Positions 14,170-31,761 of a stretch of 32,000 bases of DNA are shown here, in pieces. The notes under the pieces were generated by a model. It searched no databases and had not been told where the DNA came from. It saw nothing but the letters and a program-made list of their open reading frames with translations. The DNA is taken from contig NZ_SCNV01000033.1 in assembly GCF_005503145.1 (NCBI RefSeq), forward strand, positions 1-32,000, read 5' to 3'. This DNA is from Burkholderia sp. 4M9327F10. Lineage in GTDB: Bacteria; Pseudomonadota; Gammaproteobacteria; Burkholderiales; Burkholderiaceae. Position 1 is the first letter of the stretch. Each line of letters starts with the position of its first letter. A program made the translations under genes and the position numbers.

Positions 14170-15209
14170 GCGGCGCCTCCTGCGAGGCCCTGAGCGACGC
14201 GTGCCCTGGTATCGCCCCACAGCAGCGCCCGCACGTCGTCCGGCCAGACGTTGACGTCGAGACCGTGATGGCGGAACAGCGCGAGCGTGATGCGTTCCAT
14301 GCCGAAGCCGACGCAGCCGGTATGTGCGACCGAGCCATCTGCGCATTCGATCTTCCAGATCGCGCCGAAGTGATCCATGTGATAGTTGAACGACAGGCAG
14401 GCAGTCTTGCCGTCGGCGTTGGCGACCGGGATCAGCAACTCGAACTTGAGTGCCTGGGCGCGCTGGCTATCCGCGACGATCTTGCCGCCGCGGCCGAAGA
14501 ACGGGTCGTTGGCGAGGTCGACGTCGACCGGCAACTGCAGCATCGTCACGAGCGCCGAGCCGCGCTCGATCCACATCTGCCGGAACGCCATCACCTGTTC
14601 GGCATTGCCGAGGCGCACATATTCGCGCTGGCGGAACATCTGCATGCGCGCCGGATCGAGCGAGGGTTCGTGGCGAAAGCAATACGACAGCACGTCGATC
14701 GTGCGGCCTTCGGCGGGCAGCGGGCCGCGCCGCGCCATCACCGGATAGATCGGGTAGCAGGCGGCCGGCGTCAGCACCACCCGGGTGGGTTGCTGCTGCG
14801 CCATCCATGCGTCGCTGCGCTCGTCGTCGCGCTCGCTCATCGCATCGTCGAGCGCGCGCAACAGGCGCTGGTGGCCCATGTCGTTGCCGCAGAACGAATG
14901 GATCGTGCCGGCGAGGTTGGGAAAGCTCTTCAGGTATTCGCTGTCCTCGAAGTCGGTGCGGCGCATCGCGGGCGGAAAGCGCAGCACTTCCGGCTGCTGG
15001 TCGGCGCCCAGATGGGTGATGGCCACATTCAGGCGCTCGACCACGTCTTCGAACACCTGGCTGCGGCCGTACAGGCCGTTTTCGCCGGTATCGATCAGGA
15101 TGCCCTTCGCCAGCAGTTCATCGCGAAAGCCCGGCGCGGCGTTGCTCCCGGAGTCGGCTTGTGCTGCCTGCGCGGCGGCAAGGGCGGCGGTGTCGGTCAT
15201 CGTGTTCAT
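14166..15209 (-). CDS. Amino acid:[carrier protein] ligase, a truncated class II (methanogenic-type SerRS-like) aminoacyl-tRNA-synthetase homolog without a tRNA-binding domain
   Basis: 347 aa. Class II motif 2 is SYCFRHEPSLDPARMQMFRQREYVRLG and motif 3 is GCVGFGMERITLALFRH. Cys151, Glu181 and Cys299 sit where methanogenic-type SerRS places its Zn ligands. It is too short to carry the SerRS N-terminal coiled-coil tRNA-binding arm. Confidence 0.85.
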   Translation of the reverse strand: MNTMTDTAALAAAQAAQADSGSNAAPGFRDELLAKGILIDTGENGLYGRSQVFEDVVERLNVAITHLGADQQPEVLRFPPAMRRTDFEDSEYLKSFPNLAGTIHSFCGNDMGHQRLLRALDDAMSERDDERSDAWMAQQQPTRVVLTPAACYPIYPVMARRGPLPAEGRTIDVLSYCFRHEPSLDPARMQMFRQREYVRLGNAEQVMAFRQMWIERGSALVTMLQLPVDVDLANDPFFGRGGKIVADSQRAQALKFELLIPVANADGKTACLSFNYHMDHFGAIWKIECADGSVAHTGCVGFGMERITLALFRHHGLDVNVWPDDVRALLWGDTRARVAQGLAGGAA

Positions 15210-16515: not shown

Positions 16516-16763
16516 GCCGCCGCCTTTGCCTGTTGGAGTTCGGTCACCGCGGCAGCAAGCGAATCGATGCTCGAAAAGAGCCGGCGCGTGAGCATGCGGT
16601 CGGGAATCTCGATGTCGAATTCGTCTTCGATCGCCAGCATCAGATGCACGGTTGCGAGCGACGAGAGGCCTGCTGCGTAGAGATCGGCGTCATCCGCGAG
16701 GGTCTCGGGCGCAACGTCGAGACGTGCGGACTCGGAAAGAATGCGTCGCAATGCTGTTTTCAT
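16512..16763 (-). CDS. Acyl/aminoacyl carrier protein (phosphopantetheine-binding)
   Basis: 83 aa. DADLYAAGLSSLATVHLMLAIEDEF is a PP-attachment-site-like motif (GLSSL in place of G-x-DS-L). The protein is acidic and helical-looking. GAGGG lies 11 nt upstream of the ATG at 16763. Confidence 0.85.
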   Translation of the reverse strand: MKTALRRILSESARLDVAPETLADDADLYAAGLSSLATVHLMLAIEDEFDIEIPDRMLTRRLFSSIDSLAAAVTELQQAKAAA

Positions 16764-17020: not shown

Positions 17021-17554
17021 ATGAACTGGAAAACGCTCGAATTCGAGCAGTTCACGGCGCGCGAGCTGTATCTGGTCATGCGTGCGCGGAGTGCGGTGTT
17101 CATAGTCGAACAGTCCCATGTGTGCCTCGATGCCGATGGGCACGACGAGCAGGCATTGCACGTTTTCGCGGTGGAAGACATGTCCCGGCCGATGCCGGTG
17201 ATGGCGTACGCGCGGATTCAGCCAGGCGACCTGGAGGACCCGGAGGTGGTGATCGACAAGGTGCTGACGAGTCCCGCGCGGCGCGGCGACGGTACGGCGG
17301 AAATGCTGATCGAGCGGGTACTGCAGGCGATTGCCGAGCGCTGGGCCGGGCGTCTCGTGCGGGTGACCGCGCCGGTCAGCCTGCGCGGCTTCTATGAACA
17401 GTTCGGCTTTCGCAAGACCGAAGGACCGTTTCTCGAACATGGCGTGCCGTTCATCGGCCTGACCTGCCAGATGCGGGGTACGCGCAGCGGGTTCGGCAGT
17501 TGGCGCCGCGAGCGCAGTGCGGCGCCGGTCGCCAGCACATTCGAGCTGCTTTAA
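17021..17554 (+). CDS. elaA: GNAT-family N-acetyltransferase, ElaA-like
   Basis: AGGGGA lies 7 nt upstream of the ATG. WKTLEFEQFTARELYLVMRARSAVFIVEQSHVCLDADGHDEQALHVF...VMAYARI...FYEQFGFRKTEGPFLEHGVPFIGL aligns along its whole length with my recollection of E. coli ElaA. Confidence 0.8.
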   Translation: MNWKTLEFEQFTARELYLVMRARSAVFIVEQSHVCLDADGHDEQALHVFAVEDMSRPMPVMAYARIQPGDLEDPEVVIDKVLTSPARRGDGTAEMLIERVLQAIAERWAGRLVRVTAPVSLRGFYEQFGFRKTEGPFLEHGVPFIGLTCQMRGTRSGFGSWRRERSAAPVASTFELL

Positions 17555-17577
17555 GGGCTCACAATCAAGGGCTCCCA

Positions 17578-19092
17578 ATGATCCATGCTTCGGGTTTGCC
17601 GTTACCACGCGCCGCGCGGGATGCCGGCGCGCGGCGCTCGGCGGGGCGCCTCGCTGGGCCGGTGGCGCTGCCGGTCGGCATGTTCGTGGTCACGCTGTTG
17701 CTGATCGTCGCGCACCAGGGCAAGGTGCTGGAGCTCTCGTTCTCCGTGATGTCGACCGTGATCGCCTTTTATCTGTACCGGCGCTATCCCGCTCATTACC
17801 TCGGTTTCGTCTGCTGGCTCTACTTTCTGACGCCCGAGGTGCGGCGTTTCGCGGATTTTTTCAACGGCGCGTTTAATCCGAAGAGTCCGGTGATGCTCGC
17901 GCCGCTGCTGGCCGCGGCGATTTCAGGGCTCTCGGTGCTCGCGCACCATCGCATGCTGGGCCAGCGCCGCGCGTTGCCGCTCATGCTGATGCTGGTCGCA
18001 ATTTTCTATGGGTTTGTGATCGGCCTCGTGCGGGTCGGTCTCGCGCCGGCGGCATACACGCTGGTCAACTGGATCCTGCCGGTCTCGATGGGAGTGCATC
18101 TGATCGCGACCTGGCAGGAGTATCCGGTCTATCACCGGGTACTCCTGAAGACCTTTGTCTATGGCACGTTCGTGCTGGGCGCCTATGGCATCTATCAGTT
18201 CATTTCACCGCCGCCGTGGACTGTGTTCTGGATGGTGGGCTCGAACATGGGCACTTCGGAGGGCACGCCGGTGCCGTTCGGCCTGCGTATTTCCAGCACG
18301 ATGAACTCGGCCGGTCCGTTCGCCATCACGATTATGGCCGGCCTGCTGATGTCGCTGGCCGCACGCGGCAAGACGCGCCTCGCCTCGGTTGCAGTGGGCG
18401 TGCCGGCGCTGATGTTCACCTCGGTGCGCACGGCCTGGGGCGGCATGGTGATCGGTCTCATTTATCCGCTTGCGATGCTGGACGGAAAAAGCCGTTTGCG
18501 CCTGCTTGCCGGCGTGATCTGCCTGGTGGGGCTCTGCATGCCGTTGACGATGATCGATGCGGTCTCCGGACGCCTGATGACGCGTCTCGAATCGATCACA
18601 AACCTGAACCAGGACAACAGCTATCAGGCGCGCTCGGTCTTCTACACGAACTTCGTCTCGATCGCCTTGACCGATATTGCCGGGCAGGGAATCGGCTCAG
18701 TCGGCCTCGGCGCCAAGCTCGCCGACGACCCGAGCCAGGTCAGCGGCTCGATCGACAGCGGCATCGTCGAAGTGTGCATCGTGATGGGGTGGCCGGGTAC
18801 CTTGCTGTATGGCACGGGAGTGTTCGTACTGATCTGGCGTGCGTTTATCGCGAGCCTTGCGCAGTCGAAGGACCGCTTCGCGATTTCCGGCGTCGGCGTC
18901 GCGCTTTCCATCTTTGCCATGATGGTCATGTCGAATACCCTGCAGGGCGAGCCGGGCATGGTGTTTGTAATCGGCGTGCTGATGCCCGTAATCGGCGTGC
19001 GTTATGCGCGGCAAAAGCGGGACGGCTTGCTGCCGCCGGCTGCCTCTGCGGCCACCGTTGGCGTTGCGGTTCCGGTACGGGTGCGGCCATGA
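17578..19092 (+). CDS. wzy: O-antigen ligase/polymerase-family membrane protein (Wzy-like EPS polymerase)
   Basis: ATG at 17578 inside ORF 17500-19092. About 10-12 TM segments. A Wzy_C-like loop is present (SSTMNSAGPFAITIMAGLL...FTSVRTAWGGMVIGL). Lies 23 nt after the GNAT gene. Confidence 0.8.
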   Translation: MIHASGLPLPRAARDAGARRSAGRLAGPVALPVGMFVVTLLLIVAHQGKVLELSFSVMSTVIAFYLYRRYPAHYLGFVCWLYFLTPEVRRFADFFNGAFNPKSPVMLAPLLAAAISGLSVLAHHRMLGQRRALPLMLMLVAIFYGFVIGLVRVGLAPAAYTLVNWILPVSMGVHLIATWQEYPVYHRVLLKTFVYGTFVLGAYGIYQFISPPPWTVFWMVGSNMGTSEGTPVPFGLRISSTMNSAGPFAITIMAGLLMSLAARGKTRLASVAVGVPALMFTSVRTAWGGMVIGLIYPLAMLDGKSRLRLLAGVICLVGLCMPLTMIDAVSGRLMTRLESITNLNQDNSYQARSVFYTNFVSIALTDIAGQGIGSVGLGAKLADDPSQVSGSIDSGIVEVCIVMGWPGTLLYGTGVFVLIWRAFIASLAQSKDRFAISGVGVALSIFAMMVMSNTLQGEPGMVFVIGVLMPVIGVRYARQKRDGLLPPAASAATVGVAVPVRVRP

Positions 19093-20282
19093 GGGGTGAG
19101 GCGCTGCGTGTGCTGATCGTCACACATGTGGTCCGCAACAACGACGGGCAGGGACGGGTGAATTACGAAGTGGCGCGAGCGGCGCTTGCCGCCGGCCATC
19201 ACGTGACGATCGTGGCGTCGGAGATGGCTCGCGATCTGCTTGCCTGTCCGCGTCTGCGTTTTGTCGAGATCGCGGAGAGTGCGCTGCCCACCCGGCTTGC
19301 CAAGTATCAGATATTCGCACTACGTAGCGGTGCGTGGATCAGGGCGCACCGCGCCGAGTTCGATGTAGTGCATGTAAACGGTTTTATCGCGTGGGCCAGG
19401 GCCGATGTCAACACCGTGCACTTCGTGCATGACGGCTGGTACCGCTGCGGCTTCTATCCGTTTCGCGTGGCGGGCGGGTGGTATCCGGCTTATCAGGTCG
19501 CCTATACGCGGCTCAATGCGCTGTGCGAGAAGTGGGCGTTTCGCCACTCGCGCGTCGTGGTGCCGGTGTCGCAGAAGGTCGGCGCGGAAGTGCGCGCGCT
19601 CGGCATCGATGCAGGCACCATGCAGGTGATCCATAACGGTGTCGACGCGGACGAGTTTGCGCCGGGGGTGGCGACGCGTGAGGCGTTCGGTCTGCCGGCT
19701 GAGCCGTTCATGTTGCTGTTTGCCGGCGATCTGCGGGTATCGCGCAAGAACCTCGATGCGGTGTTGCATGCGCTCGTTTCGACGCCGCCTCATGTCCATC
19801 TCGCGGTAGCCGGGATTTTGCGCAACAGCCCTTACCCGGCGCTTGCCGCGACGCTCGGCGTCGGTGCGCGGGTCCATTTTCTCGACCTTGTGCAGGATAT
19901 GCCTCGCCTGATGCGTTCTGTCGATGCGTTTGTGTTTCCTTCGCGCTATGAGGCGATGAGTCTCGTGATGCTCGAGGCCCTGGCGGCGGCGCTGCCTGTC
20001 GTGACGGTAGCGACTGCGGGCGGCGCGGAAGTGATCGATAGCCGCTGTGGCGTAGTGCTCGATAGCCCCGAAGACATCGCGGGTCTCGCGCAGGCGATAG
20101 TTCATCTTGCACAGCACCCCATGGAGGCGCGCGCGATGGGCGCTGCCGCGCGCGAGCTGGCGCAGTCGCTCACATGGCAGAGCATGGCGGCGCGTTATCT
20201 GTCGCTCTACGAAGACCTCGCCAGCAGGCGCGCCAGTTCCGGCGCGCGTCTGTCCGGCGCTGCCGTGTCGGCCAAATCATGA
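19089..20282 (+). CDS. Glycosyltransferase family 4
   Basis: Its ATG overlaps the wzy TGA as ATGA at 19089-19092. N-terminus LRVLIVTHVVRNNDGQGRVNYEVARAALAAGHHV. C-terminal signature FVFPSRYEAMSLVMLEALAAALPVVTVATAGGAEVI. Confidence 0.9.
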   Translation: MRGEALRVLIVTHVVRNNDGQGRVNYEVARAALAAGHHVTIVASEMARDLLACPRLRFVEIAESALPTRLAKYQIFALRSGAWIRAHRAEFDVVHVNGFIAWARADVNTVHFVHDGWYRCGFYPFRVAGGWYPAYQVAYTRLNALCEKWAFRHSRVVVPVSQKVGAEVRALGIDAGTMQVIHNGVDADEFAPGVATREAFGLPAEPFMLLFAGDLRVSRKNLDAVLHALVSTPPHVHLAVAGILRNSPYPALAATLGVGARVHFLDLVQDMPRLMRSVDAFVFPSRYEAMSLVMLEALAAALPVVTVATAGGAEVIDSRCGVVLDSPEDIAGLAQAIVHLAQHPMEARAMGAAARELAQSLTWQSMAARYLSLYEDLASRRASSGARLSGAAVSAKS

Positions 20283-21457
20283 GCGCGCGTATCGATTCGT
20301 TGCAGATCGGGATGCACTGGTTCCGCGAGCGGCCTGGTGGGCTCGATCGCGTCTTCATGGCGCTGATCGAGTCTCTACCGACCCAGGGCGTCGATGTACG
20401 CGGGCTCGTCGCCGGTAGCCCGAAGGTGTTCGCTGAGTCGAGCGGGGTGATCCAGACCTTCGCCAGTGCGCAGCAATCGCTGGGTGTGCGGCTGTGGCAT
20501 GCGCGGATGCACTCGCAGAAGCTCAAGCGCGTCCGCGCCCCCGATATCGTCGCCAGCCATTTCGCGCTGTATGCCGCGCCGACGCTGGGGGTGTTCCCCG
20601 GGGTGCCCAAGGTGGTCCATTTTCATGGACCCTGGGCCGACGAGACCTCGCTTGACGGACGCCGGCGGGCCTCGCGGGCGGTGCGCCGCGCGATCGAGTG
20701 GGCGGTGTATCGCGGCGCGGCGCGCCATATCGTGCTCTCACGTGCGTTCGGGCGGATTCTGCACGAGCAGTATGGCGTGCACGAGGAGTCGATCCGCGTC
20801 GTGCCTGGGTGTGTCGACGTGGCGTGCTTCGATATCGGCGTGACGAAGCAGCAGGCGCGCGCCGCGCTCGGCCTGCCCAATGACCGGCCGCAACTGTTCT
20901 GTATCCGCAGACTGGTGTCGCGCATGGGGCTCGAAGATCTGATCGACGCCATGTTCCTCGTCAAGCAGGCCGTGCCGGATGTGCTGCTGACGATTGCCGG
21001 CAAGGGGCCGCTCGAAGCCGCGTTGCGTGGGAGGATCGCGGCGCGCGGCCTGACCGAGCACGTCAAGCTCGCCGGCTTCGTCACCGATGCGGCGTTGCCG
21101 CTCTGGTATCGCAGCGCTGACGTGACGGTGGTGCCGACGGTGGCGCTGGAAGGCTTCGGCCTCACCACGGCGGAGTCGCTCGCCACCGGCACGCCAGTGC
21201 TGGTGACACCGGTGGGCGGATTGCCCGAGGCGGTGGCGCCATTGTCGGAACACCTCGTGCTGCCTTCGGTGGGCTTTCACGCAATTGGCACCGGCATTGT
21301 GGATGCGCTGCTCGGCGAGCGCCCCTTACCCGATGCGCAGGAATGCCGCGCCTATGCTCAGGCGCGTTTCGATTATCCGGTGATCGCCGCGCAAGTCGCC
21401 GATGTGTATCGCGAAGCACTCGGCGAGCGTCGCACGGCTGCTTACGTCGCAGCCTGA
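20279..21457 (+). CDS. Glycosyltransferase family 4
   Basis: ATGA overlap with the upstream GT at 20279-20282. Signature VVPTVALEGFGLTTAESLATGTPVLVTPVGGLPEAV. Confidence 0.88.
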   Translation: MSARIDSLQIGMHWFRERPGGLDRVFMALIESLPTQGVDVRGLVAGSPKVFAESSGVIQTFASAQQSLGVRLWHARMHSQKLKRVRAPDIVASHFALYAAPTLGVFPGVPKVVHFHGPWADETSLDGRRRASRAVRRAIEWAVYRGAARHIVLSRAFGRILHEQYGVHEESIRVVPGCVDVACFDIGVTKQQARAALGLPNDRPQLFCIRRLVSRMGLEDLIDAMFLVKQAVPDVLLTIAGKGPLEAALRGRIAARGLTEHVKLAGFVTDAALPLWYRSADVTVVPTVALEGFGLTTAESLATGTPVLVTPVGGLPEAVAPLSEHLVLPSVGFHAIGTGIVDALLGERPLPDAQECRAYAQARFDYPVIAAQVADVYREALGERRTAAYVAA

Positions 21458-21501
21458 GCGGCCGCCTGCGTTGTGCGTCTCTTCGAACTGCGGGCGGCCG
21501 C
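21458..21501 (+). terminator. GC-rich stem-loop directly after the stop codon; a possible attenuator or partial terminator
   Basis: GCGGCCGCC (21458-21466) pairs with GGCGGCCGC (21493-21501): 9 bp perfect with a 26-nt loop. No U-tract follows. Confidence 0.3.
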
Positions 21502-21642
21502 ACAGACGCGTTGCGCTGCAGCGTCGACTATCGGACTGCTGGCCATGGCGCGGCGGTGAGGCTGTCCGCGTTGCGCCTGCAGCCCGGCTGGGACCCCGCC
21601 ATTACCTTGCTATGAACCATTAACGACTGGACTGAGCTTTCC

Positions 21643-22761
21643 ATGAGAATCATCCATCTGGCGAATCATATTCAGCTCGTTGGCAACGGCATCGTTAACA
21701 TGATGATTGACCTGGCCTGCATGCAGGCTCAGGCCGGTCACGATGTGGTGGTGGCGTCCTCGGGGGGGGAATTCGAAACACTGCTGGCGCGCCACGGCGT
21801 GCGCCATGTGCACCTCGCCCAGTCACGCGATCCGTGGCGCGCGCCAGCCATGCTGCTGGGATTCCGGCGGCTCGTGCAACGCTTCGACCCCGACGTCGTG
21901 CATGCTCATATGTTGACCGGCACGCTGCTGGCGCGCTTCAGCGTGCTGCGCCGCCGCTATCTGCTGGTGGCGACGCTCCACAACGAATTTCCGAAGACCG
22001 CCTCGCTGATGCGTTTCGCCGATCGCGTGGTAGCGGTGAGCGAAGCGGTGGCGGAGTCGATGAGGTTGCGCGGCGTACCGGCCGAGCGCCTTTCGGTGGT
22101 GCGCAACGGCACGGTCGGCACGCCGCGTCGGGCCGGCATGCCACTGCCGCCTTCGCCGCACCTGCAGCGGCCTTCGATCACCACGGTCGCCGGCATGTAT
22201 CAACGCAAGGGCATTCAGGATCTGCTGCGGGCGTTTGCGCGCCTGCGCCCGCGCTTTCCGCAGGCGACGTTGTACCTGGTCGGCAACGGTCCTGACCGTG
22301 CCATGATGGAAGCGCTCGCGCAGGAACTGGGGCTGCAAGGGCACGCGCACTTTGCGGGATTCGTCGGCAACCCCGCCGCATATCTGGCTGAGACCGACAT
22401 CTTCGTGCTGCCTTCGCACAAGGAAGCCGGCGGTCTCGTGCTGTGCGAAGCGCGCGAGGCGGGTTGTGCCGTGGTCGCGACCCGGGTGGACGGCAATCCG
22501 GAGATGGTTGGCGGTGAGCAGGCTGCACTGCTGGTTCCGCCTGCGGACCCCGACGCGCTTGCAGACGCAATCGGCCGCCTGCTTGACGATGCCGTGTTGC
22601 GGGCCGATCTCGCGGCGCGCGGCCAGCACAGCCTTGACGATTTTTCGGTGCAGCGGGTGTGCGAGGCGTATCTGCAACTCTACGATCGCGCGCTTGGCGA
22701 ATATCCCCGCCCGCAGCCGGCACGGGTGCGGGCCACCGAGTCGCACCGCGGGATGCTCTGA
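21643..22761 (+). CDS. Glycosyltransferase family 4
   Basis: MRIIHLANHIQLVGNGIVNMMIDLACMQAQAGHDVVV, then FVLPSHKEAGGLVLCEAREAGCAVVATRVDGNPEMV. It follows a 185-bp gap. Confidence 0.9.
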   Translation: MRIIHLANHIQLVGNGIVNMMIDLACMQAQAGHDVVVASSGGEFETLLARHGVRHVHLAQSRDPWRAPAMLLGFRRLVQRFDPDVVHAHMLTGTLLARFSVLRRRYLLVATLHNEFPKTASLMRFADRVVAVSEAVAESMRLRGVPAERLSVVRNGTVGTPRRAGMPLPPSPHLQRPSITTVAGMYQRKGIQDLLRAFARLRPRFPQATLYLVGNGPDRAMMEALAQELGLQGHAHFAGFVGNPAAYLAETDIFVLPSHKEAGGLVLCEAREAGCAVVATRVDGNPEMVGGEQAALLVPPADPDALADAIGRLLDDAVLRADLAARGQHSLDDFSVQRVCEAYLQLYDRALGEYPRPQPARVRATESHRGML

Positions 22762-23711
22762 TGGACGGCACGCTACTTCAGCCGCGACAGGCACAGGAGC
22801 AGCAATCGCCGCGAGCGCAGCCGCAGTTCGCCGTCTGCGTGACGACGATGAATCGCACCGGGGCGCTCGCGGCTTGCCTCGACAACCTGCTGCGCTGCGA
22901 TCCTCCGCCGGCCGCGATCGTGGTCAGCGACGATTCACCCGATGCGGCAGCACGCGCCGCGAACCGGGCCATTGTAGCGGCGCGGCCCGGCGCGGTGTAT
23001 CTCGCCGGACCGTGCCGCGGTGTTTGCGCGAACCGCAACAACGCGGTTCGCTACTGCCTTGCGAATGCGCCGCACTGCAGCCACGTCTCTTTCGTCGATG
23101 ACGATATCCAGGTCAGCAGCGATTTTTTTGCGGTGGCGCGTGCGAACGTCGAGCGCCTGCGCAGGGGGCCGCGCGACACGGCAATCCTGACGGGCGGCGC
23201 ATCGAGTGGGCCGAACCTTTATGAATGCCGGCCGGTGCGCCTGTCTTTCAGAGGGTATTTCATGGAAGGCGGCGAGCCGCAGTGCATCAACCTGCATGCT
23301 TCGGTGTTTCCGCTGGCGCTGTTCGGTCACGACATGTTTGATGAAAACATTTTCTTCGGCAGCGAAGACGCCGAATTGACGTTGCGCGCACTGCGGCGCG
23401 ACTACAGGATCGAGCTGGTGCCTGCGTTGCGCGCCCGCGACACCATGCCCGGCGGCGGCGTATTGCACACGATCAAAGCCTCGCAGGCCGCAGGCGGCCT
23501 GACACGTTATCAGGTCAACTGCGAGGCTGCACGCCTCTATATCGGCGTCAAGCGCTATAGCGTGATCGAGCCGAGCCTGCTCAGGTGCGCGGCATTCGTG
23601 TCGATCTATTTCGGCCATCTGACGTTGTATCTCGCGCGCCGCCACGCGCTGTCCCAGCTCGTACCTATCGTCAGGATGTCGAACGTCTGGCGGGCGCGTA
23701 GCGCCCGCTGA
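22761..23711 (+). CDS. Glycosyltransferase family 2
   Basis: The ATG at 22761 shares one base with the upstream TGA (TGATG). Motifs: FAVCVTTMNRTGALAACLDNLL, AIVVSDDSPD, and SFVDDDIQV (DxD). Confidence 0.85.
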   Translation: MDGTLLQPRQAQEQQSPRAQPQFAVCVTTMNRTGALAACLDNLLRCDPPPAAIVVSDDSPDAAARAANRAIVAARPGAVYLAGPCRGVCANRNNAVRYCLANAPHCSHVSFVDDDIQVSSDFFAVARANVERLRRGPRDTAILTGGASSGPNLYECRPVRLSFRGYFMEGGEPQCINLHASVFPLALFGHDMFDENIFFGSEDAELTLRALRRDYRIELVPALRARDTMPGGGVLHTIKASQAAGGLTRYQVNCEAARLYIGVKRYSVIEPSLLRCAAFVSIYFGHLTLYLARRHALSQLVPIVRMSNVWRARSAR

Positions 23712-23774
23712 AAGACAGACTACAACACAGGGGCATGGAGGAGATCACGTAACGCATTCTCCAGGAGCAAGAAC

Positions 23775-25004
23775 ATGGGATGGAAAGGTTCGATTTTTGA
23801 AGTGCCGGTCTGGGCGCTCGGCCGCCTGCTGCGCTCCGGTCGCGATCCGGCGCGCCAACCGCCGCATGAGATTCTGGTGCTGCGCCCCAACGACTTCGGC
23901 GATCTGCTGACGACCACGCCGATCTTCGAGGCGTTGCGCCGCCGCTTTCCCGCGAGCCGGATCATCGCCGGCGTTGGCAGCTGGGGGCGCGCGATTGTCG
24001 AAAACAATCCTTATGTCGACGAGATTGTCGAAGTCGACGCGCCGTGGAACAACAAGTTCGTGGCGGACCAGTCGTGGCGCAATGTGTTTCGCTATATCTG
24101 GGGGGCTGCCCAGGTCGAGGGGTTACGCAAGCGTGGCGGCTTCGACGTGGGCATCGATGTGCTGGGCAGTCACGTGGGCGCGTTGCTGATGATGCGGCTC
24201 CGTGTGCGCTACCGGGTTGGCGTGCGTGGCTATCGCGGCGGCTGGAGCGCCTGCGACCAGTACATCCGTTTCTCGCCGCAGGTGCATGTCGCACGGGCTG
24301 CGCTCGCCCAGGCCGAACTGCTTGGCGCAAGCGAGCTTCCCGAGGCGCGTCCGCAGCTTTACCTCACGGCGGCGGAACGTGCCGAGGCCTGCCAGATCTG
24401 GCGCGCGGGTGCGCACCCGGAACGTCCGCCGCTGCGCCTGCTGGTTGGCTGTGCAGCGGGGCACAGCGTCAAGACCTGGTCGAGCAACGCGCTCGGTGCG
24501 GCGCTCGGCGAGCTGGCGCGGGTCTGCGTCGAGCGGCAGCTGGATGTGGTGATCGTCGGGGGCCCGGCTGATCAGGTCCGCGCCAAAGAGGTGATTGCCG
24601 CGAGCGGGGCGGCGGCCAGGATTCGTTCGCTGGCGGGCCAGATCTCGCTGCGCGGCACCTTCGCGCTGACCGAGCAGGCGGACGTGGTGCTGACCAATCC
24701 GTCGATGCTGCTGCACGTGGCGGCGGCCTTTCGCCGTCCGACCGTCGCCGTGCTCGGCGGAACCTTCGCCGATGCCGCCGCGCACGATGCCGTGTGGGGC
24801 TATCCGCCTCCTTATATGAGCGTGGCGCCGTCGCAGCCTGCGCCGGGCGAGGAGCGCGGCAAGCGTGGCACGCAGGCGCAAGGCGGCTCCAGCTGGCCAT
24901 CGGTCGATCAGGTCGTGCAGGCCGTGTTGGCGGCGGCCCGTTGCGGGGCGGACAATGAGGCGTTCGCTCGAGAAGCCAGCCTGTCGGTATCGGGACTCGG
25001 CTGA
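23775..25004 (+). CDS. Glycosyltransferase family 9 (heptosyltransferase-like)
   Basis: AGGAG lies 8 nt upstream. ILVLRPNDFGDLLTTTPIFEALRRRFPASRIIAGVGSWGRAIVENNPYVDEIV is the typical GT9 N-terminus. Also LLVGCAAGHSVKTWS, VIVGGPADQ and LTNPSMLLHVAAAFRRPTVAVLG. Confidence 0.85.
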   Translation: MGWKGSIFEVPVWALGRLLRSGRDPARQPPHEILVLRPNDFGDLLTTTPIFEALRRRFPASRIIAGVGSWGRAIVENNPYVDEIVEVDAPWNNKFVADQSWRNVFRYIWGAAQVEGLRKRGGFDVGIDVLGSHVGALLMMRLRVRYRVGVRGYRGGWSACDQYIRFSPQVHVARAALAQAELLGASELPEARPQLYLTAAERAEACQIWRAGAHPERPPLRLLVGCAAGHSVKTWSSNALGAALGELARVCVERQLDVVIVGGPADQVRAKEVIAASGAAARIRSLAGQISLRGTFALTEQADVVLTNPSMLLHVAAAFRRPTVAVLGGTFADAAAHDAVWGYPPPYMSVAPSQPAPGEERGKRGTQAQGGSSWPSVDQVVQAVLAAARCGADNEAFAREASLSVSGLG

Positions 25005-25104: not shown

Positions 25105-25137
25105 CTCAGTTTGCCCTCAATTCGCCCTCAGTTCGCC
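25105..25137. repeat. Three tandem 11-nt repeats: CTCAGTTTGCC / CTCAATTCGCC / CTCAGTTCGCC
   Basis: Read directly. A related copy, CTCAGTTAGTCC, lies at 25072-25083. The wzx stop codon (25128-25130) is inside the third unit. Confidence 0.8.
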
Positions 25138-26588
25138 TGCAGCGAGACCCGCGTCCAGAGCTTGTGCAGCAGTTCTCGCAACGCGCGCGACCGGTATAGC
25201 GACCAGCCCAGGTTGGCGCCGGCGAGCGCGAGTCCGGCAGCCACGATCAGCGGCAGCCCGCTGAGGTTGGCTGCCAGCATTAGCGCGGCCAGCAGGAACG
25301 CCAGGTGCGCGAGCATGTTGCCGAGAATGACCCGCACGTGAACACGCGCAAAGTAGAGATAGGCACCATAGTCGAACAAGGCTTTTGCCACCACGATGGC
25401 GCCGGCGCCCACCACGCCGAAGGCGTGCGTGGCGAACCAGAGCGCGGCGACGAACACCGGCAGTTGCAGCCAGCTCACCCGCGCGACGTAGGCCGGATTG
25501 GCCTGGGCCTGAATCAGGATGCCGAGAATCCCCGACTGGCCGGCTAGCCACACTCCCAGCACGAGAACGCGTCCAACCGGCGCCGAGGCGGCGGCAAGCG
25601 GTGCGCCGAGCCATAGCGTGAGAAACGGACCGAGTGCGAACAGGGCGACGATCATGCAGGGCGTGAACGCGCCGTTGAGAAAGGCGAGCGAATCGCGTGC
25701 AAGGGCATCGGCCTCGTTGCGCGAGGCGGCCGACAGGCGCGGAAACAGCGAGCGCAGCATCGCGCTCGGCAGCATGTTCAGCCGTTGCACGAGGTTTTGC
25801 GGCGTCGCGTAGTAGGTCACGAAGCGCGCCCCAAGGATCGCGCCGACCAGCACACGGTCGAGCGAGCCGGCAATCGCTCCGGCGCCCGAAAACAGCAGCA
25901 TCCACTTGCCATAGCCGAACAGCTCGCCGATGACCTTGCGCTCGGGCTTGCGAACCCGTTTGATGCCGAGGGCGCGAAACGTCGCGACGCCGAGCATCAC
26001 GCCGGCGATGAGGCGCGCGCACACCGCAGCGGGAATCACGACTGCGAGCGAGGCAGAGAAGCAATAGATCGCGGCGAGCGGCAGAAGCTGGAACAGCATC
26101 GTACCGAGCGTCTGGTTGGTGTTGTAGCTGGCAAAGCGCTCGACCGCCGTAATCGCGCCGGCGAATACCCAGGTGACGTTGGCAAGCGGCACGGCAATCG
26201 CAATCCATGGCAAGGCAGCCATCACTTCGCGCTGGAAGGCGGGCTCAATATGCACGCCGTAGGCCATGTAAAAGTACGCGCCGAAATAGACGAGTACGCC
26301 GCCCACGATGCCGGTGGCGAGATTGAGAAAGCACGCCCCCCAGAAAATCCGCTCGACCGAATCGTCCCCGGCGTCGCGCACCTTGGCGATCTGGTTTTCG
26401 GTGGCGAGGCTCGTGCCCAGATCGAGCAGGCTGAAATAGCCGATCAGCGCCCACACCAGGTTGATCACGCCGTAACGCTCCACCCCCAGCAGGTGGATGT
26501 AGGCCGGCACGGTCGCGAGCGAGACGAGGGTCGGCGCGATCAGCCCTGCGAAGTTGATGACGATATTCTTGAGAAGGGTCTTTTCCAT
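25128..26588 (-). CDS. wzx: MOP-family polysaccharide flippase (Wzx)
   Basis: The ATG at 26588 lies 1 nt after the upstream gene's stop. MEKTLLKNIVINFAGLIAPTLVSLATVPAYIHLLGVERYGVINLVWALIGYFSLLDLG is a typical Polysacc_synt N-terminus. About 12-14 TM segments. Confidence 0.88.
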   Translation of the reverse strand: MEKTLLKNIVINFAGLIAPTLVSLATVPAYIHLLGVERYGVINLVWALIGYFSLLDLGTSLATENQIAKVRDAGDDSVERIFWGACFLNLATGIVGGVLVYFGAYFYMAYGVHIEPAFQREVMAALPWIAIAVPLANVTWVFAGAITAVERFASYNTNQTLGTMLFQLLPLAAIYCFSASLAVVIPAAVCARLIAGVMLGVATFRALGIKRVRKPERKVIGELFGYGKWMLLFSGAGAIAGSLDRVLVGAILGARFVTYYATPQNLVQRLNMLPSAMLRSLFPRLSAASRNEADALARDSLAFLNGAFTPCMIVALFALGPFLTLWLGAPLAAASAPVGRVLVLGVWLAGQSGILGILIQAQANPAYVARVSWLQLPVFVAALWFATHAFGVVGAGAIVVAKALFDYGAYLYFARVHVRVILGNMLAHLAFLLAALMLAANLSGLPLIVAAGLALAGANLGWSLYRSRALRELLHKLWTRVSLQAN

Positions 26589-26589
26589 G

Positions 26590-28749
26590 TCACAGCAGGC
26601 CGGCAATGTCGTGCTCGAACAGGATGGCTCCCTGGGCGCTCACATGGTTGTCGTCTTCGTAGAGCGGCACGCCGTTCAGCACCGCGAGGCAGGTTGGGCC
26701 GTTGCAAAGCACGCGCATCGGATCGAGGATCTTCACGCCCGGCGTGTTCGCCTCGCGCGCGACGACGGCGCGATTGAACGCTTCGAGCGCGTGGGTCTCG
26801 GCCGCGGCCGGTTCGACGAGAGCGGGGTGGGTATACGCCCTCGGCAGCAAATAGCCCTTTAAGACCGGTGGATTCTGCACGATCACCACGCGCGGCGTAC
26901 TCTTCAGCAGCGCTGCGACGGTCGCCGGAAGCTGACTCGCGAGCGCGGCGCGCGAGCTGGCCTGGGTGGCGTCGCTGCTTGCATCGGTGGTCACGAAGTG
27001 GGTCGCCTTCTGCAATTGGCCGTCGCTGATCCAGCCGTCGCTATAGAGGCTCCAGCGCGCCACGAGGAACACCGCCGCCGGCTTCAGTTCGTGTATCGAG
27101 GCGACGATCGGCTCGGCGAGCCCGAGTCGCGCGCAGAATTCCCCGCTTTCCGCACCGTCGCTGCGGCGGGTGGCGAGCAGAGGCGGGCACCCGGGATGCG
27201 AGAACAGCATCAGCCGCAGGTGATGCTCGTAAGCGATTTTCGCAAACACCGGCAGCCAGGCGCCCGCATGCGAATCGCCCCAGACCACCAGCGGCGCTCC
27301 GCCGGCACTCGCGTTGTAGGCCTTGCAGAAAGTGTCGGCCTGCCGCGACGCGAGATGGCAAGGCTCGCCAATGTATCGATCACGGATCGAAGCGTCGAGC
27401 GCGGCCTGCGTGATGCCGGGGTTGTGCGCGACGGCGCGCGACGGCAGACCGTCGCGGTAATACAGGCTCGCCCCGAGCCCCGCGAGGGCGGCCAGTAGCG
27501 CGCACAAGGCGGGGATTTTCAGCGTGTCGTTTTTCCACCGGCGCAGCGGACGCTCGATCAACGTATAGGTCAGCGTGGCGAGTATCACGCTCGCCAGCAG
27601 CAACACTAGCTTGGTTCCGTTCGAGACGATGCCGGGGTCTACGATATTGGCGAATGACAACAGCGGCCAGTGCCACAGATAGAGCGGGTAGCTGATCAGG
27701 CCAATCGCGATGGCGAGGCGGTTGCCCAGCAGATGGCGGTTGAGCCATGCATGGGGCCCGGCGCCGATGATCAGAAACGCGCCGAGCGTAGGCAGCAGCG
27801 CGCGCCAGCCCGGGAATACATCGTTCTTGTCGAACAGCAGGAGCGCCGCGCCGATCAGTACGGCGCCGGCGACTGACCAGAGATTGCCGTGCCGGGGCAG
27901 ATAGTGCTGTTTGTGGAGGACGAGATAGGCGAGCGTGCCGCCGATCATCAGTTCCCAGACACGCGAGAACGGTGAATAAAACGCGGCGGTGGGATCGGCG
28001 TGAGCCGTCAGCAGGTTCACGGCAAACGAGGCCGCACCGATGATGCCCGTGAGCGCCAGAAAGCCCAGCCGCCGTTTCCACGCGAAGCCGACCAGCACGG
28101 GCCAGAAAATATAAAACTGCTCCTCGATACCGAGCGACCATAAATGCAGCAGCGGCTTGGTGGCGGCGGTGTTGTCGAAATAGCCGGATTCGCGCCACAG
28201 CGCGAGGTTCGCGATGAAGGTGGCGCCGGTGAAGACATGCTTGCCCAGTTGCTGATACTCGGTCGGCATCAGCGCGCCCCAGCCGAACACGAGGCAGGTG
28301 CCGAGCACCAGCGCGAGGGCCGGGAAAATCCGCTTGATACGCCGTGCGTAGAACAGGGCGTAGCTGAATTGACCTGCTTCCAGGCTTTCGAAAATGATCG
28401 AGCTGATCAGAAAGCCGGAGATCACAAAGAACAGATCGACGCCCACATAGCCGCCCGGTACGAGCGCAGGAAACGCGTGAAATCCCAGCACCGAGAGGAC
28501 CGCGACGGCGCGCAGGCCATCGACGTCGGGCCGGTATCCGGGGGCAGGCAGCGCAGGCAGTTGCATCGAGGCGCCCGTAGCGCCCGCGGCGAACGCGGCA
28601 TTGGCCGCGGGCGCGGGGCAGTCGGCGGCGGTGTCGCGCAAGCGTGCCGTGGCGGAGGAGGAGACGGCCGCGTGCCGGCCCTCGGCATTCGCGGACGATG
28701 CGCTGAGGTCCATCGACGGCAACGAAGCGCCCTTGCTTTTGAATAGCAT
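26590..28749 (-). CDS. Acyltransferase-3 membrane domain fused to a periplasmic SGNH domain (OafA/YrhL-like O-acetyltransferase)
   Basis: AT3 N-terminus YRPDVDGLRAVAVLSVLGFHAF...VDLFFVISGFLIS. SGNH block I VVWGDSHAGAW and block V YEDDNHVSAQGA. I place the start at the ATG at 28749, because the region downstream of it has high GC3. The ATG at 28566 is an alternative. Confidence 0.88.
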   Translation of the reverse strand: MLFKSKGASLPSMDLSASSANAEGRHAAVSSSATARLRDTAADCPAPAANAAFAAGATGASMQLPALPAPGYRPDVDGLRAVAVLSVLGFHAFPALVPGGYVGVDLFFVISGFLISSIIFESLEAGQFSYALFYARRIKRIFPALALVLGTCLVFGWGALMPTEYQQLGKHVFTGATFIANLALWRESGYFDNTAATKPLLHLWSLGIEEQFYIFWPVLVGFAWKRRLGFLALTGIIGAASFAVNLLTAHADPTAAFYSPFSRVWELMIGGTLAYLVLHKQHYLPRHGNLWSVAGAVLIGAALLLFDKNDVFPGWRALLPTLGAFLIIGAGPHAWLNRHLLGNRLAIAIGLISYPLYLWHWPLLSFANIVDPGIVSNGTKLVLLLASVILATLTYTLIERPLRRWKNDTLKIPALCALLAALAGLGASLYYRDGLPSRAVAHNPGITQAALDASIRDRYIGEPCHLASRQADTFCKAYNASAGGAPLVVWGDSHAGAWLPVFAKIAYEHHLRLMLFSHPGCPPLLATRRSDGAESGEFCARLGLAEPIVASIHELKPAAVFLVARWSLYSDGWISDGQLQKATHFVTTDASSDATQASSRAALASQLPATVAALLKSTPRVVIVQNPPVLKGYLLPRAYTHPALVEPAAAETHALEAFNRAVVAREANTPGVKILDPMRVLCNGPTCLAVLNGVPLYEDDNHVSAQGAILFEHDIAGLL

Positions 28750-29047
28750 GTCGGACTCGTGCTGTGCTGCTCTTGGGTCGCTGGTGTGCGTGAGGCACGG
28801 GCAGGCGCTCGCACAACCACGGGCTGGGTGATGGTCCCGATTGTGCAACGCGGCTGCCGTGCACAGTGTGGGCGGCCGTACAGATAGGCCGAGCCGCGTT
28901 TGATGTAATTCCGACAAATACCTGACAGACCCGATTTCGTACTCGCACATTCGCAGAGGCGAACTGCGGCGACGCCGATCCGACCGCGCCATGGACTCTC
29001 GTTCCCAGGCGCCTCGATCCGGTTACGCTCTCGCACAAGGACACAAA
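28750..29047. promoter_or_regulatory. Divergent intergenic region between the acyltransferase/wzx unit (-) and the hydrolase/methyltransferase unit (+)
   Basis: 298 bp with no credible ORF. Contains the inverted repeat TGTGCA-N12-TGCACA at 28842-28865. Confidence 0.45.
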
Positions 29048-30925
29048 ATGAAACCTGTCGTCTTCGACGGCTGTGTTGGCTGGCTTCATCCAGCCGAGGG
29101 GCAACATGGGGTGGTCCTGTGCAATCCGTTCGGCTATGACGCGCTTTGCACCCACCGCGGCTGGCGAGCGCTCGCGGAACGTCTCGCGGCAGCGGGCCTG
29201 CCGGTCTTGCGCTTCGACTATCCGGGCAGCGGCGACTCGCTCGGAGATGAAGAGGAGCCGGGCCGGGTGGCGGCGTGGCTCGACAGCATCGGCGCGGCGA
29301 TGCGCTTTCTGAGGCAGTCGGCCGGGGTGACCCGGGTGTCGCTATGCGGCTTGCGCCTGGGCGGCACGCTGGCGGCGCTCGCGGCGCAGCGTTCGGGTGA
29401 GGTGGACGCTCTGGTGCTGCTCTCGCCGGCGCTCTCGGGTAAGAACTATCTGCGCGAATTGCGGGCGCATCGGCAGAGCTGGCTGAGCACGCCTGCGGGT
29501 ATGAACGCCGAGCCGATTGCGGATTCTGCCGCGTATGTCGAAGCGTTCGGTTTTGGCCTGCATGGCGAGGACATTGCGCAACTTGGCTCGGTCGATCTAC
29601 GTGCGGACACTACCGCTCCTGCGCGCCGCGTGCTGATGCTCGCGGCGAACGATCAGAGCCGCGCCGCGGCACTGGTGGCGCACTACCGCGCGAACGGGGT
29701 ACAGGTCGAACAGCAAGGGTTCGACGAGGCCGACCGGTTTCTGCTCGAGGCCCTGTACAGCGAAGAGCCGGTACAGGCCTTTGCCGCGCTCACGCAGTGG
29801 CTGGCTGAGACGCCTGCGCCTGAGGCGGGCGCTGTTGCCGCAGTTCATGGCGATGCTTGTGCCGATGAATCGTCCACGGGGTCTTCCACCGAGTCTTCCA
29901 CTTTAAGGCTCGCAAGCGAACACGCGGTCGAACGTCCGATTGTCTTCGGCGCTTACTTCGGCATCTACTGTCAACCCGATGTCCCTTGCGAGGGGGCGCC
30001 TGCCGTGTTGTTCCTGAATACCGGTGCGAGCCACCATATCGGTGACGGACGGATCTTTGTGCTGTTCGCGCGCCGTCTCGCGGCGCAGGGGATCGCTTCG
30101 CTGCGCATGGACCTGGGCGGTCTCGGCGACAGCACGCCGCTCGCCCAGGCGGTGACGCTCGACACCATCTATTCGCAAGCCTCGTGTGCTGATGCGATGG
30201 CCGGCGCCGACTGGCTGGCCAGCAGCGGACACGAACGCATCGTCACCTTTGGGGTGTGCGGCGGCGCGTTTAACGGCCTGCATGCATGCGCGAATCATCC
30301 ACGTATCGCGGGCTGCTTCGGCGTGAACCTGCAGAAGTTCATCTGGGATGGCGCGGCGCGTACGCCGGGCACCGCAGGCCTCGCATCGAACCGTGTATTG
30401 CGGCGCTCGGCCATGAGTCTTGCCAAGTGGCTGCAGGTGTTGCGCGGCGAGTCGTCGCTATGGCGCGTGATACGCGGTCTCGCGCAACGGCTCGGCCGCA
30501 GCCTGTTCGTGCGCGCAGCCGATCTGCTCGAAGCAGGGCTCGGAATTTCCATTGCACCGAACGAGGCGAAACGTCTCTTGCAGCGCATCGATGCGAAGGG
30601 GGCGCAAGTGCGGCTCGTATTCGGCGAGTACGACCTTGGGCTCGACGAACTGAAGATCGAGTTCGGCGCGCAGTTGCGCGGGCTGCGCCGTTTTTCGCAG
30701 GTGCGCGCCACGACCTTGCCGAAGCTCGATCACGCGCTGTTCACGCGCGCGGCGCGCGAGGCGGCGATGACCGACGCGCAGCAGTGGCTATTCGAGTGCC
30801 TTGTCGCGGCGCCGGCGCCGCACGGCGAAGTGCCGCATCCGGCGCCGCTCAGTGTGGCGGTTTGCGCGGCCGTGCCGGATGGATCGGCTCTGTGTGCTGC
30901 CGGTCTCGATCAGGCGCGTCAATGA
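29048..30925 (+). CDS. Fusion of two alpha/beta-hydrolase-fold domains
   Basis: AAGGA lies 7 nt upstream of the ATG. N-half: GVVLCNPFGYDAL...LPVLRFDYPGSGDS...SLCGLRLGGTLAA. A Ser/Thr-rich linker (DESSTGSSTESST) follows. C-half: PAVLFLNTGASHHIGDGRIFV...LRMDLGGLGDS...VTFGVCGGAFNG...LPKLDHALF. Confidence 0.8.
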   Translation: MKPVVFDGCVGWLHPAEGQHGVVLCNPFGYDALCTHRGWRALAERLAAAGLPVLRFDYPGSGDSLGDEEEPGRVAAWLDSIGAAMRFLRQSAGVTRVSLCGLRLGGTLAALAAQRSGEVDALVLLSPALSGKNYLRELRAHRQSWLSTPAGMNAEPIADSAAYVEAFGFGLHGEDIAQLGSVDLRADTTAPARRVLMLAANDQSRAAALVAHYRANGVQVEQQGFDEADRFLLEALYSEEPVQAFAALTQWLAETPAPEAGAVAAVHGDACADESSTGSSTESSTLRLASEHAVERPIVFGAYFGIYCQPDVPCEGAPAVLFLNTGASHHIGDGRIFVLFARRLAAQGIASLRMDLGGLGDSTPLAQAVTLDTIYSQASCADAMAGADWLASSGHERIVTFGVCGGAFNGLHACANHPRIAGCFGVNLQKFIWDGAARTPGTAGLASNRVLRRSAMSLAKWLQVLRGESSLWRVIRGLAQRLGRSLFVRAADLLEAGLGISIAPNEAKRLLQRIDAKGAQVRLVFGEYDLGLDELKIEFGAQLRGLRRFSQVRATTLPKLDHALFTRAAREAAMTDAQQWLFECLVAAPAPHGEVPHPAPLSVAVCAAVPDGSALCAAGLDQARQ

Positions 30926-31761
30926 CCATGCCGGCGCCACTGCACCGGATTTACCAGCGTGCGTGGCAGTCGCATATCGCCTCGCGCGACTTCACGATCG
31001 AAAAGACCTGGATCGACCTTGGGCTCGCTGCGGCCTTCGATTGGGTAGCCGGCGAGTGCAGCGGGCAGCCTGTGCTTGAAATCGGTGTAGGCGCGGGACT
31101 CACCGTGCCGTTGATGACGCGGATCTCCGCCGACTACACCGGGATCGACTATTCGCCGCGCATGCTCGACGAGGCGCGGCAGCGCTTCCCGGGCCTCGAT
31201 CTGCGGCTGATGGATGCGCGCGACATGGCGGGGCTGGAGTCGGATCACTACGCGCTCGCGGCGTTCTGCTGGAACGGCATCGATTGTGTCAGCTACGAGG
31301 ACCGCCAGCGCGTGCTGGAGCAGATGTACCGGGTGACGCGGCCCGGCGGCCTCGTGCTGTTCTCGAGCCACAATCGCGACGGTCCGGCGTTTCGCGAAAG
31401 CATCTGGCAACTGCGGCCGCGTTTCTCGCGCAATCCCTTGCGCCTCGGCTGGCGCCTCGTGCGCATGCTGCGGCTGTTTCCGCCGGCGGCCTATCACTGC
31501 CTGCGGCATCTGCGCTGCCGCCGCGACTACGAGGGCTATTCGGTCAAGGCTGCTGCCGCCCATTTCTTTCGCATCATGATCGTCTATACGACACTGCCGG
31601 AGCAGCGGCGGCAACTGGCATCGTTCGGATTCCAGATTGATGCGGTGTTCGGCAGCGGCGACGGCAAGCGTATCTACGCCGAGACCAGGACGAGCGACGC
31701 ATGGTGGTTTTACTTTATTGCCCGCAAGCCGGTGCATCACTTTATTCTGGCGGACAAATGA
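30922..31761 (+). CDS. Class I SAM-dependent methyltransferase
   Basis: ATGA overlap with the hydrolase stop at 30922-30925. Motif I is VLEIGVGAGLTVPLM, followed by IDYSPRMLDEARQRF, LMDARDM and RPGGLVLFSSHN. Confidence 0.85.
   Translation: MTMPAPLHRIYQRAWQSHIASRDFTIEKTWIDLGLAAAFDWVAGECSGQPVLEIGVGAGLTVPLMTRISADYTGIDYSPRMLDEARQRFPGLDLRLMDARDMAGLESDHYALAAFCWNGIDCVSYEDRQRVLEQMYRVTRPGGLVLFSSHNRDGPAFRESIWQLRPRFSRNPLRLGWRLVRMLRLFPPAAYHCLRHLRCRRDYEGYSVKAAAAHFFRIMIVYTTLPEQRRQLASFGFQIDAVFGSGDGKRIYAETRTSDAWWFYFIARKPVHHFILADK

Follow-up and report, generated by a model that had tools for sequence, protein, structure and literature searches.

The window analysed here, a stretch of 32,000 nucleotides from Burkholderia sp. 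4M9327F10 (contig NZ_SCNV01000033.1, positions 1 to 32,000), is a Wzx/Wzy-type polysaccharide locus with a GC content of 65%. We focus on one of its genes, a coding sequence (CDS) of 625 aa at 29048-30925 on the forward strand, whose product resembles the two exosortase-associated hydrolases, hydr2 and hydr1, joined in one chain, and which is a candidate for the enzyme that off-loads a carrier protein. The CDS lies within a longest open frame of 28991-30925, and two things back its start at 29048: an AAGGA ribosome-binding site, and the Met there being the first residue of every homologue. The GC content per codon position (0.72/0.52/0.75) is coding-like. A simple hydropathy scan of the 625-aa protein found no signal peptide and no hydrophobic or membrane segment, which is consistent with the use of a cytoplasmic carrier. 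No second copy of the fused hydrolase was found in a search of the window's own genome. The features of the gene are as follows.

29037..29041, + strand: ribosome-binding site AAGGA, 6 nt 5' of the ATG at 29048
29048..30925, + strand: whole CDS, fused hydr2-like and hydr1-like alpha/beta-hydrolase of 625 aa, predicted to be soluble and cytoplasmic
29048..29815, + strand: N-lobe, residues 1-256, hydr2_PEP-like fold without Ser nucleophile or His (TIGR03101, Pfam and model topology)
29120..29122, + strand: Cys25 codon, end of strand 3, at the oxyanion-hole 'HG' position
29354..29356, + strand: Arg103 codon CGC, in the N-lobe nucleophile elbow G-L-R-L-G
29816..29902, + strand: linker, residues 257-285, disordered and Ser/Thr/Ala-rich (pLDDT <50 at 271-280; gappy alignment columns)
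29903..30817, + strand: C-lobe, residues 286-590, hydr1_PEP-like, with a helical cap at ~430-518 (TIGR03100 and model topology)
30257..30259, + strand: Cys404 codon TGC, predicted nucleophile, in the elbow G-V-C-G-G-A
30632..30634, + strand: Asp529 codon, predicted acid after strand 7
30731..30733, + strand: His562 codon, predicted base after strand 8, in the motif L-D-H

The initial annotation had described two alpha/beta-hydrolase-like halves joined by a Ser/Thr-rich linker, and an AlphaFold2 model built from 119 homologues (mean pLDDT 88.2, pTM 0.89) bore this out, with two complete alpha/beta-hydrolase lobes at residues 1-253 and 286-586 and a linker whose length varies between homologues. 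A pTM of 0.89 for a two-domain chain implies that the modelled lobes are packed in a defined arrangement. The Arg and Cys codons that had been picked out at 29354-29356 and 30257-30259 read CGC and TGC, and in the model R103 and C404 occupy the strand-5/helix-C elbows of the N-lobe and the C-lobe, respectively. Since C404 sits at the elbow and D529 and H562 follow strands 7 and 8, the canonical acid and base positions, the C-lobe has a predicted canonical Cys404-Asp529-His562 triad, so that the model and the alignments agree with the Cys-His enzyme suggested for this half and add its acid. Neither the alignments nor the model revealed a standard Ser-Asp-His triad hidden in either half. The N-half had also been said to carry Arg at the terminal His position. 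The absence of His is conserved, and Arg230 itself falls in a variable column, which holds R or K in Burkholderiaceae and A, E or D in more distant relatives. Pfam assigned generic alpha/beta-hydrolase families (Hydrolase_4, Abhydrolase_1), chiefly to the first 230 residues. Foldseek and profile searches of the PDB returned no two-lobed relative, only generic single-domain Ser esterases and lipases, and the closest folds were esterases, lipases and one thioesterase (DcsB).

Nine residues do not vary among 119 close homologues: G101, R103, G105, G402, C404, G406, D529, D561 and H562. In 81 genome-derived relatives the elbow glycines, R103 and C404 are likewise invariant, as are D529, D561 and H562 except for a gap in one row, and the same proteins share further invariant residues in the N-lobe (H14, C25, R55, D57 and E137) and in the C-lobe (R335 and D355); R136, R353 and N427 each deviate in one sequence only. 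A distant set of 141 full-length cluster representatives at 32-51% identity keeps R103 in 131, C404 in 137 (Ser in 3), D529 in 132 and H562 in 140. Cys25 is present in 81/81 genome-derived fused proteins and in 136/141 distant representatives, and it adjoins Arg103 in the N-lobe fold.

The exosortase-A-associated hydrolase models matched both halves, as the initial annotation had anticipated, at scores below the curated cut-offs and in a genome without an exosortase match. The N-half matched TIGR03101 (hydr2_PEP) over residues 14-138 with 86.4 bits (E 2.2e-24; cut-off 202.75, not reached) and the C-half matched TIGR03100 (hydr1_PEP) over residues 320-581 with 100.1 bits (E 1.3e-28; cut-off 168.45, not reached); TIGR03100 gave 61 bits in the genome-level search. 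The genome that contains the window is 100% complete and gave no match to exosortase (PF09721). With both scores below their cut-offs and no exosortase in the genome, the fused protein forms a sister subfamily of TIGR03100/TIGR03101 that lies outside those equivalogs.

Genuine members were collected through a TIGR03101 search of 300 genomes of the class, from which twelve loci above the cut-off were taken. They supplied 12 aligned hydr2_PEP sequences (11 split proteins and the N-half of L014, a natural hydr2-hydr1 fusion of 621 aa) and 11 aligned hydr1_PEP sequences (10 adjacent split proteins and the C-half of L014); the pairs in L003-L013 are adjacent. All 12 hydr2_PEP sequences have the elbow (G/A)-x-R-x-G, with which R103 of the window aligns, and all 11 hydr1_PEP sequences have W-G-L-C-D-A/G, S-G-x-D and (N/D)-H-T-F-S, which align with C404, D529 and H562. 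The Arg and Cys elbows are thus hallmarks of the hydr2/hydr1 pair, being carried by every genuine sequence aligned. The two systems share the hydr2-then-hydr1 order (side by side in TIGR03101/TIGR03100, which are hypothetical equivalogs, and fused in the window), the Arg elbow in hydr2, the Cys elbow with Asp and His in hydr1, and the association with a carrier protein and an adenylating loader. They differ in the loader, which is a TIGR03098 acyl-CoA ligase for the exosortase pair and a ligase resembling seryl-tRNA synthetase (SerRS) in the window, and in two N-lobe features: genuine hydr2_PEP has Pro at the place of Cys25, and its C-terminal motif (E/D)-P-F-W-x-T-Q-E is missing from the window, where D-E-A-D-R-F-L-L-E-A-L-Y-S with an insertion is found instead. 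A profile of the fused family run over 301 genomes of the order drew a clear line between the two forms, with E <1e-90 for full-length fused proteins and E 1e-20 to 1e-39 for split pairs; two intermediate matches (E 1e-61 and 1e-52) spanned the full length with an internal stop.

These alignments bear on the suggestion that the N-half is degenerate, which did not hold. Because its invariant residues in the 81 relatives are as numerous as those of the C-lobe, and because its Arg elbow is common to genuine hydr2_PEP, the N-lobe is selected as strongly as the C-lobe and is conserved rather than decayed. A decayed N-lobe was ruled out on the same two grounds.

The likeness to polyhydroxyalkanoate (PHA) synthases (PhaC) and dienelactone hydrolases that had been drawn from the lipase-like box survived at the level of the motif and not at that of the family. 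PhaC families in Pfam and NCBIfam gave no match at E <=1, and a G-x-C-x-G box alone does not define that family. Dienelactone hydrolase (PF01738) reached 14.6 bits against a gathering cut-off of 21, over residues 74-124 of the N-lobe only, a region that has no Cys nucleophile. Type I/II thioesterases (PF00975) gave no match at E <=1, and the nucleophile is Cys, not Ser. Membership of PhaC, dienelactone hydrolase or thioesterase families was therefore ruled out for want of significant matches. Cys-dependent acyl or aminoacyl transferases and synthases with an alpha/beta-hydrolase fold include SyrC/CmaE-type shuttles, PhaC and dienelactone hydrolase, which share Cys-His-Asp chemistry on this fold with the window protein. 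The SyrC/CmaE shuttles, likened here by description only, take up aminoacyl groups from a carrier-protein thioester. To our knowledge, none of these enzymes needs a second, Arg-bearing lobe.

The candidate partners of the hydrolase are a methyltransferase immediately downstream, dependent on S-adenosylmethionine (SAM), and a cassette on the opposite strand around a carrier protein, which includes a flavoenzyme of the acyl-CoA dehydrogenase (ACAD) fold.

30922..31761, + strand: SAM-dependent methyltransferase, translationally coupled to the hydrolase through an ATGA overlap at 30922-30925
16512-16763, - strand: 83-aa carrier protein (PP-binding), the presumed donor; strand corrected to minus
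15211-16515, - strand: ACAD-fold flavoenzyme, probable modifier of the carrier-bound group; co-operonic with the hydrolase in L096
14166-15209, - strand: amino acid:[acyl-carrier-protein] ligase, SerRS-like, tRNA-independent, the predicted loader; NF005479, 531 bits against a cut-off of 357
13153-14346, - strand: DUF1839 protein of papain-like fold; PF08893, E 3.8e-131; the 5' end of the open reading frame is probably over-extended
10523-13228, - strand: GH2-like protein with a sugar-binding N-domain and an Ig domain

The genetic link to this cassette, proposed from the letters of the window, was supported by shared loci, by a six-gene operon and by co-occurrence with the ligase. Across 80 loci of relatives, collected with an 11-sequence alignment, 45 have a homologue of the carrier protein no more than 10 kb from the fused hydrolase, and in ~27 it is directly upstream. 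Alphaproteobacteria have a co-directional six-gene operon in the order acyl carrier protein (ACP), ACAD, amino acid:[ACP] ligase, DUF1839, GH2-like protein and hydrolase. This order was seen in Azospirillum, Reyranellaceae and Acetobacteraceae, and loci L087, L090, L093 and L094 have it; the RefSeq annotation of Azospirillum brasilense gives the same operon on a chromid (L096:4155-11800), where the GH2-like and hydrolase genes share 4 bp. In compact operons the GH2-like gene always has DUF1839 on one side and the hydrolase on the other. In a sample of 301 genomes of the order, the ligase scored above its cut-off in 10, and the full-length fused protein (E <1e-90) occurred in 9, all of them among those 10, with hydrolase and ligase on the same contig and 3.6-21 kb apart in 8/9. 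The only ligase-bearing genome without the hydrolase has its ligase 3 kb from a contig end. About 50 other genomes of the sample have split pairs and no ligase that reaches the cut-off.

A homologue of the methyltransferase adjoins the hydrolase or the carrier protein in 31/80 loci; it stands by the hydrolase in some and by the carrier protein in others (L024, L027, L033, L034, L036, L037), and the coupled enzyme may act on the carrier-bound group. The protein at 15211-16515 had the acyl-CoA dehydrogenase family (Rv1679/FadE16) as a weak best match in NCBIfam, and its next matches include ACAD-fold flavin monooxygenases (SfnB, DszC, HsaA, HpaB-like). Given these monooxygenases among its matches, it may oxygenate rather than dehydrogenate the carrier-bound group. 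DUF1839 has been described as papain-like in fold, its triad being Cys-(Thr/Ser)-His (PMC10318531). The loader of the window is a full-scoring member of the amino acid:[carrier protein] ligase family to which Bll0957 and Atu2573 belong (Mocibob et al. 2010, 2013, as cited in PMC9437257), and the fused hydrolase co-occurs with this family almost one-to-one. No follow-up on the downstream fate of the ligase-loaded carrier was found in the open-access literature, and the fused hydrolase is a candidate for the missing step after loading.

A sister clade of 27 fused proteins (SH-aLRT 100) points the same way. The gene for each of these proteins follows immediately on that of a carrier protein, in 25/27 loci with an AMP-ligase ahead of the carrier, and DUF1839 is absent; these counts overstate independence, since context is shared among relatives by descent. 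L075 and L076 were counted in this clade by their adjacent carrier protein and have a bio operon upstream and no AMP-ligase there. The hydrolase is the only candidate off-loader at these loci. In Paraburkholderia caffeinilytica (L084:3645-11809) and 13-14 similar loci, the sister module lies directly downstream of genes for an MprF-like aminoacyl-phosphatidylglycerol synthase and a VirJ/AcvB-like hydrolase, neighbours that hint at a connection with the aminoacylation of membrane lipids. Three genomes encode a nonribosomal peptide synthetase (NRPS) in which an Arg-elbow hydr2-like domain is fused right behind the carrier (T) domain, in the slot of the release domain, and a separate G-L-C-S-G-A hydr1-like gene follows each fusion. 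These NRPS proteins (L097:3455-7411, L098:4239-8936 and L099:1943-4561; C-A-T and A-T) lack a thioesterase domain, and the Arg-elbow hydr2-like domain is their last.

The remaining genes of the window make up the polysaccharide locus itself.

3049-5460, - strand: Wzc
5486-6745, - strand: Wza
7750-9153, - strand: WcaJ-type priming transferase
9183-9932, - strand: CRP-family regulator
17021-17554, + strand: ElaA-like GNAT, counterpart of Bcam1341
17500-19092, + strand: Wzy-like protein
20174-25004, + strand: glycosyltransferases
25128-26606, - strand: Wzx
26590-28992, - strand: AT3-SGNH O-acyltransferase, divergent from the hydrolase, in Bep-type synteny (Bcam1333/1334)

The locus is a Paraburkholderia version of Bep/Bec, the biofilm-polysaccharide locus of Burkholderia. 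Gene set and order are shared (Wza, Wzc, AT3 by a TIGR03100-type protein, Wzx, GT4 glycosyltransferases, GNAT and a CRP-type regulator), in a comparison of the window annotation with Table 2 of PMC3584217 and with Burkholderia arboris (L095) rather than with the B. cenocepacia sequence. In Burkholderia cenocepacia, bep comprises Bcam1330-1341, and Bcam1334, listed as 'hypothetical protein, TIGR03100', lies by the AT3 acyltransferase Bcam1333 (PMC3584217). Fazli et al. guessed that Bcam1334 acts like AlgL, PelA or PslG (PMC3584217), the only mention of TIGR03100 in the literature searched; the published view is thus of a possible polymer-processing hydrolase. The bec cluster of B. pseudomallei is said to span BCAM1334-1350, and a transposon mutant of its 'acyl-CoA dehydrogenase domain' gene, becG, gives smooth colonies (PMC5507470). 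B. arboris has a homologue of ~37% identity in a bep-like arrangement, and tblastn assigned GH2-like, DUF1839, ligase, ACAD and carrier genes to the interval between its Bcam1341-like GNAT and its BerA-like CRP-type regulator (L095:23592-33676), so that bep as delimited in the literature (Bcam1330-1341) probably omits five functionally linked genes. The divergent AT3-SGNH gene was considered as a conserved partner, a DltB-like idea, and was ruled out on its presence in 1/80 loci only.

We propose that the fused protein is a cytoplasmic, two-lobed acyl or aminoacyl transferase that off-loads the carrier protein, a reading to which we give a probability of roughly 0.55. It follows from the constant set of loader, carrier and Arg-lobe/Cys-lobe pair, the last sometimes in the position of a release domain. 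In this scheme the ligase (14166-15209) would charge the 83-aa carrier with a small amino acid on its phosphopantetheine arm, and the ACAD-like flavoenzyme, possibly with the coupled methyltransferase, might modify the bound group. Cys404, activated by His562 and Asp529, would then attack the carrier thioester to give a thioester acyl-enzyme, from which the C-lobe would hand the group to an acceptor. Because all components look cytoplasmic, the likeliest acceptor would be a hydroxyl of the lipid-linked Bep-type repeat unit before it is flipped by Wzx. The N-lobe would serve as an obligatory, non-nucleophilic partner, with Arg103 in place of the serine and the invariant Cys25 beside it; its probable role is to dock the carrier protein, the phosphate of the carrier's phosphopantetheine or an anionic acceptor.

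Several observations weigh against this proposal. Both hidden Markov model scores for hydr1 and hydr2 are under the curated cut-offs. DUF1839, with its papain-like fold (PMC10318531), offers a second possible off-loader within the cassette, which could leave a hydrolytic or editing role for the hydrolase. The Azospirillum six-gene operon is not within any polysaccharide locus, so the acceptor need not be an exopolysaccharide (EPS). The Bep structure reported for B. cenocepacia consists of neutral hexoses only, with no substituent (PMC7084887). The polymer had been extracted with 0.3 M NaOH and its NMR spectra recorded in NaOD (PMC7084887); since such treatment would hydrolyse esters, the published structure is compatible with the proposal.

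The logic of this proposal recalls D-alanylation of teichoic acids by the Dlt system, which comprises the DltA ligase, the DltC carrier protein and, for transfer, DltB/DltD. An adenylating loader, a small carrier and dedicated proteins that esterify a cell-surface polymer would be common to both. The proteins are unrelated, in that transfer in Dlt involves an MBOAT membrane protein and here would fall to a cytoplasmic Cys/Arg double alpha/beta-hydrolase, and the window loader is a homologue of class II aminoacyl-tRNA synthetases. A more specific version of the proposal, which we offer only tentatively, is that the fused enzyme is the missing transferase of a tRNA-independent pathway that esterifies a small, possibly modified, amino acid onto Bep-type EPS, that this ester was missed in alkali-treated Bep, and that the hydr2/hydr1 pair is a widespread two-lobed release module moving carrier-bound groups to glycans or lipids.

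The strongest competing explanation, for which we see about one chance in five, is a hydrolytic thioesterase that frees the (modified) amino acid or acyl product or, like a type II enzyme, clears a mis-loaded carrier, with DUF1839 as the true transferase. An alpha/beta-hydrolase fold beside a carrier would suit this role, as would the NRPS release-domain place taken by the pair in three genomes, the esterases, lipases and thioesterase DcsB among the nearest PDB folds, and the Cys-(Thr/Ser)-His site predicted for DUF1839. Against it, 137/141 distant representatives have Cys as the nucleophile, whereas Ser is usual in ordinary type I/II thioesterases and Cys favours transfer and acyl-enzymes that live longer; the Pfam thioesterase family is not matched either. 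Moreover, the AMP-ligase clade, with no DUF1839 nearby, would be left without a transferase, and an enzyme that only edits would have no use for a conserved second lobe.

The acceptor could also differ from the one proposed. A membrane lipid or another non-polysaccharide acceptor would make the system a tRNA-independent counterpart of lipid aminoacylation by MprF, with its position in EPS loci being secondary. The sister module directly 3' of MprF-like and VirJ/AcvB-like genes in 14-15 Paraburkholderia loci and the Azospirillum operon outside EPS loci point in this direction, but the copies in the window, in other Paraburkholderia Bep-type loci and in B. arboris all lie within Wza/Wzc/Wzx/Wzy loci, and a sugar-binding GH2-like protein always precedes the hydrolase in compact operons, so we consider a lipid acceptor improbable. 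Slightly less probable again is a PhaC-like condensing enzyme, whose two lobes would mimic the PHA-synthase dimer and join carrier-bound units into an oligo-ester or oligo-amide. The G-x-C-x-G box with Asp and His reproduces the PhaC arrangement as a motif, and the second invariant thiol, Cys25 beside Arg103, could permit a two-site relay. Against it stand the missing PhaC family match, PDB relatives that are only generic single-domain esterases, and the Pro that genuine hydr2_PEP has instead of Cys25, and nothing else points to a polymeric product. An esterase or 'quality-control' hydrolase that processes the polysaccharide, as Fazli et al. proposed for the TIGR03100-annotated bep gene Bcam1334 by analogy with AlgL, PelA and PslG (PMC3584217), would fit a gene beside an AT3-SGNH O-acyltransferase but is very unlikely for a protein with no signal peptide or membrane segment, whose constant partners over 80 loci are carrier and loader (AT3 in 1/80) and whose gene is also found in operons without polysaccharide genes.

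A search of the literature for studies of function, whether of TIGR03100/03101, of Bcam1334 or of the amino acid:[carrier protein] ligases, returned only annotation. Hydrolases 1 and 2 of the exosortase-associated pair have kept hypothetical status ever since the family was defined, and the Bep/Bec gene remains a mere 'predicted hydrolase'. The new elements are the fused form as a distinct subfamily, the invariant Cys25, the near one-to-one tie to the SerRS-like ligase cassette and the occurrence in Bep-type loci without exosortase. The hydrolase pair, the fate of the ligase-loaded carrier and the Bep/Bec gene would be joined by one hypothesis, that a two-lobed, Cys-based enzyme accepts the group from the carrier and hands it on. 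If this is true, a new class of enzymes decorates surface polymers, the Bep structure should be re-examined under non-alkaline conditions, and the amino acid:[carrier protein] ligases gain a long-sought physiological role. The module is present in two non-pathogenic, genetically tractable organisms, Paraburkholderia xenovorans LB400 (the L044 orthologue) and Azospirillum brasilense. The A. brasilense operon is flanked by 'tail fiber protein' genes, a GNAT gene and a gene for a very large DUF4347 protein. An OsmC gene also adjoins the Azospirillum operon, and an 810-aa protein at another locus (L100:1014-3446) combines an alpha/beta-hydrolase domain, which matches TIGR03101 weakly, with a C-terminal OsmC domain.

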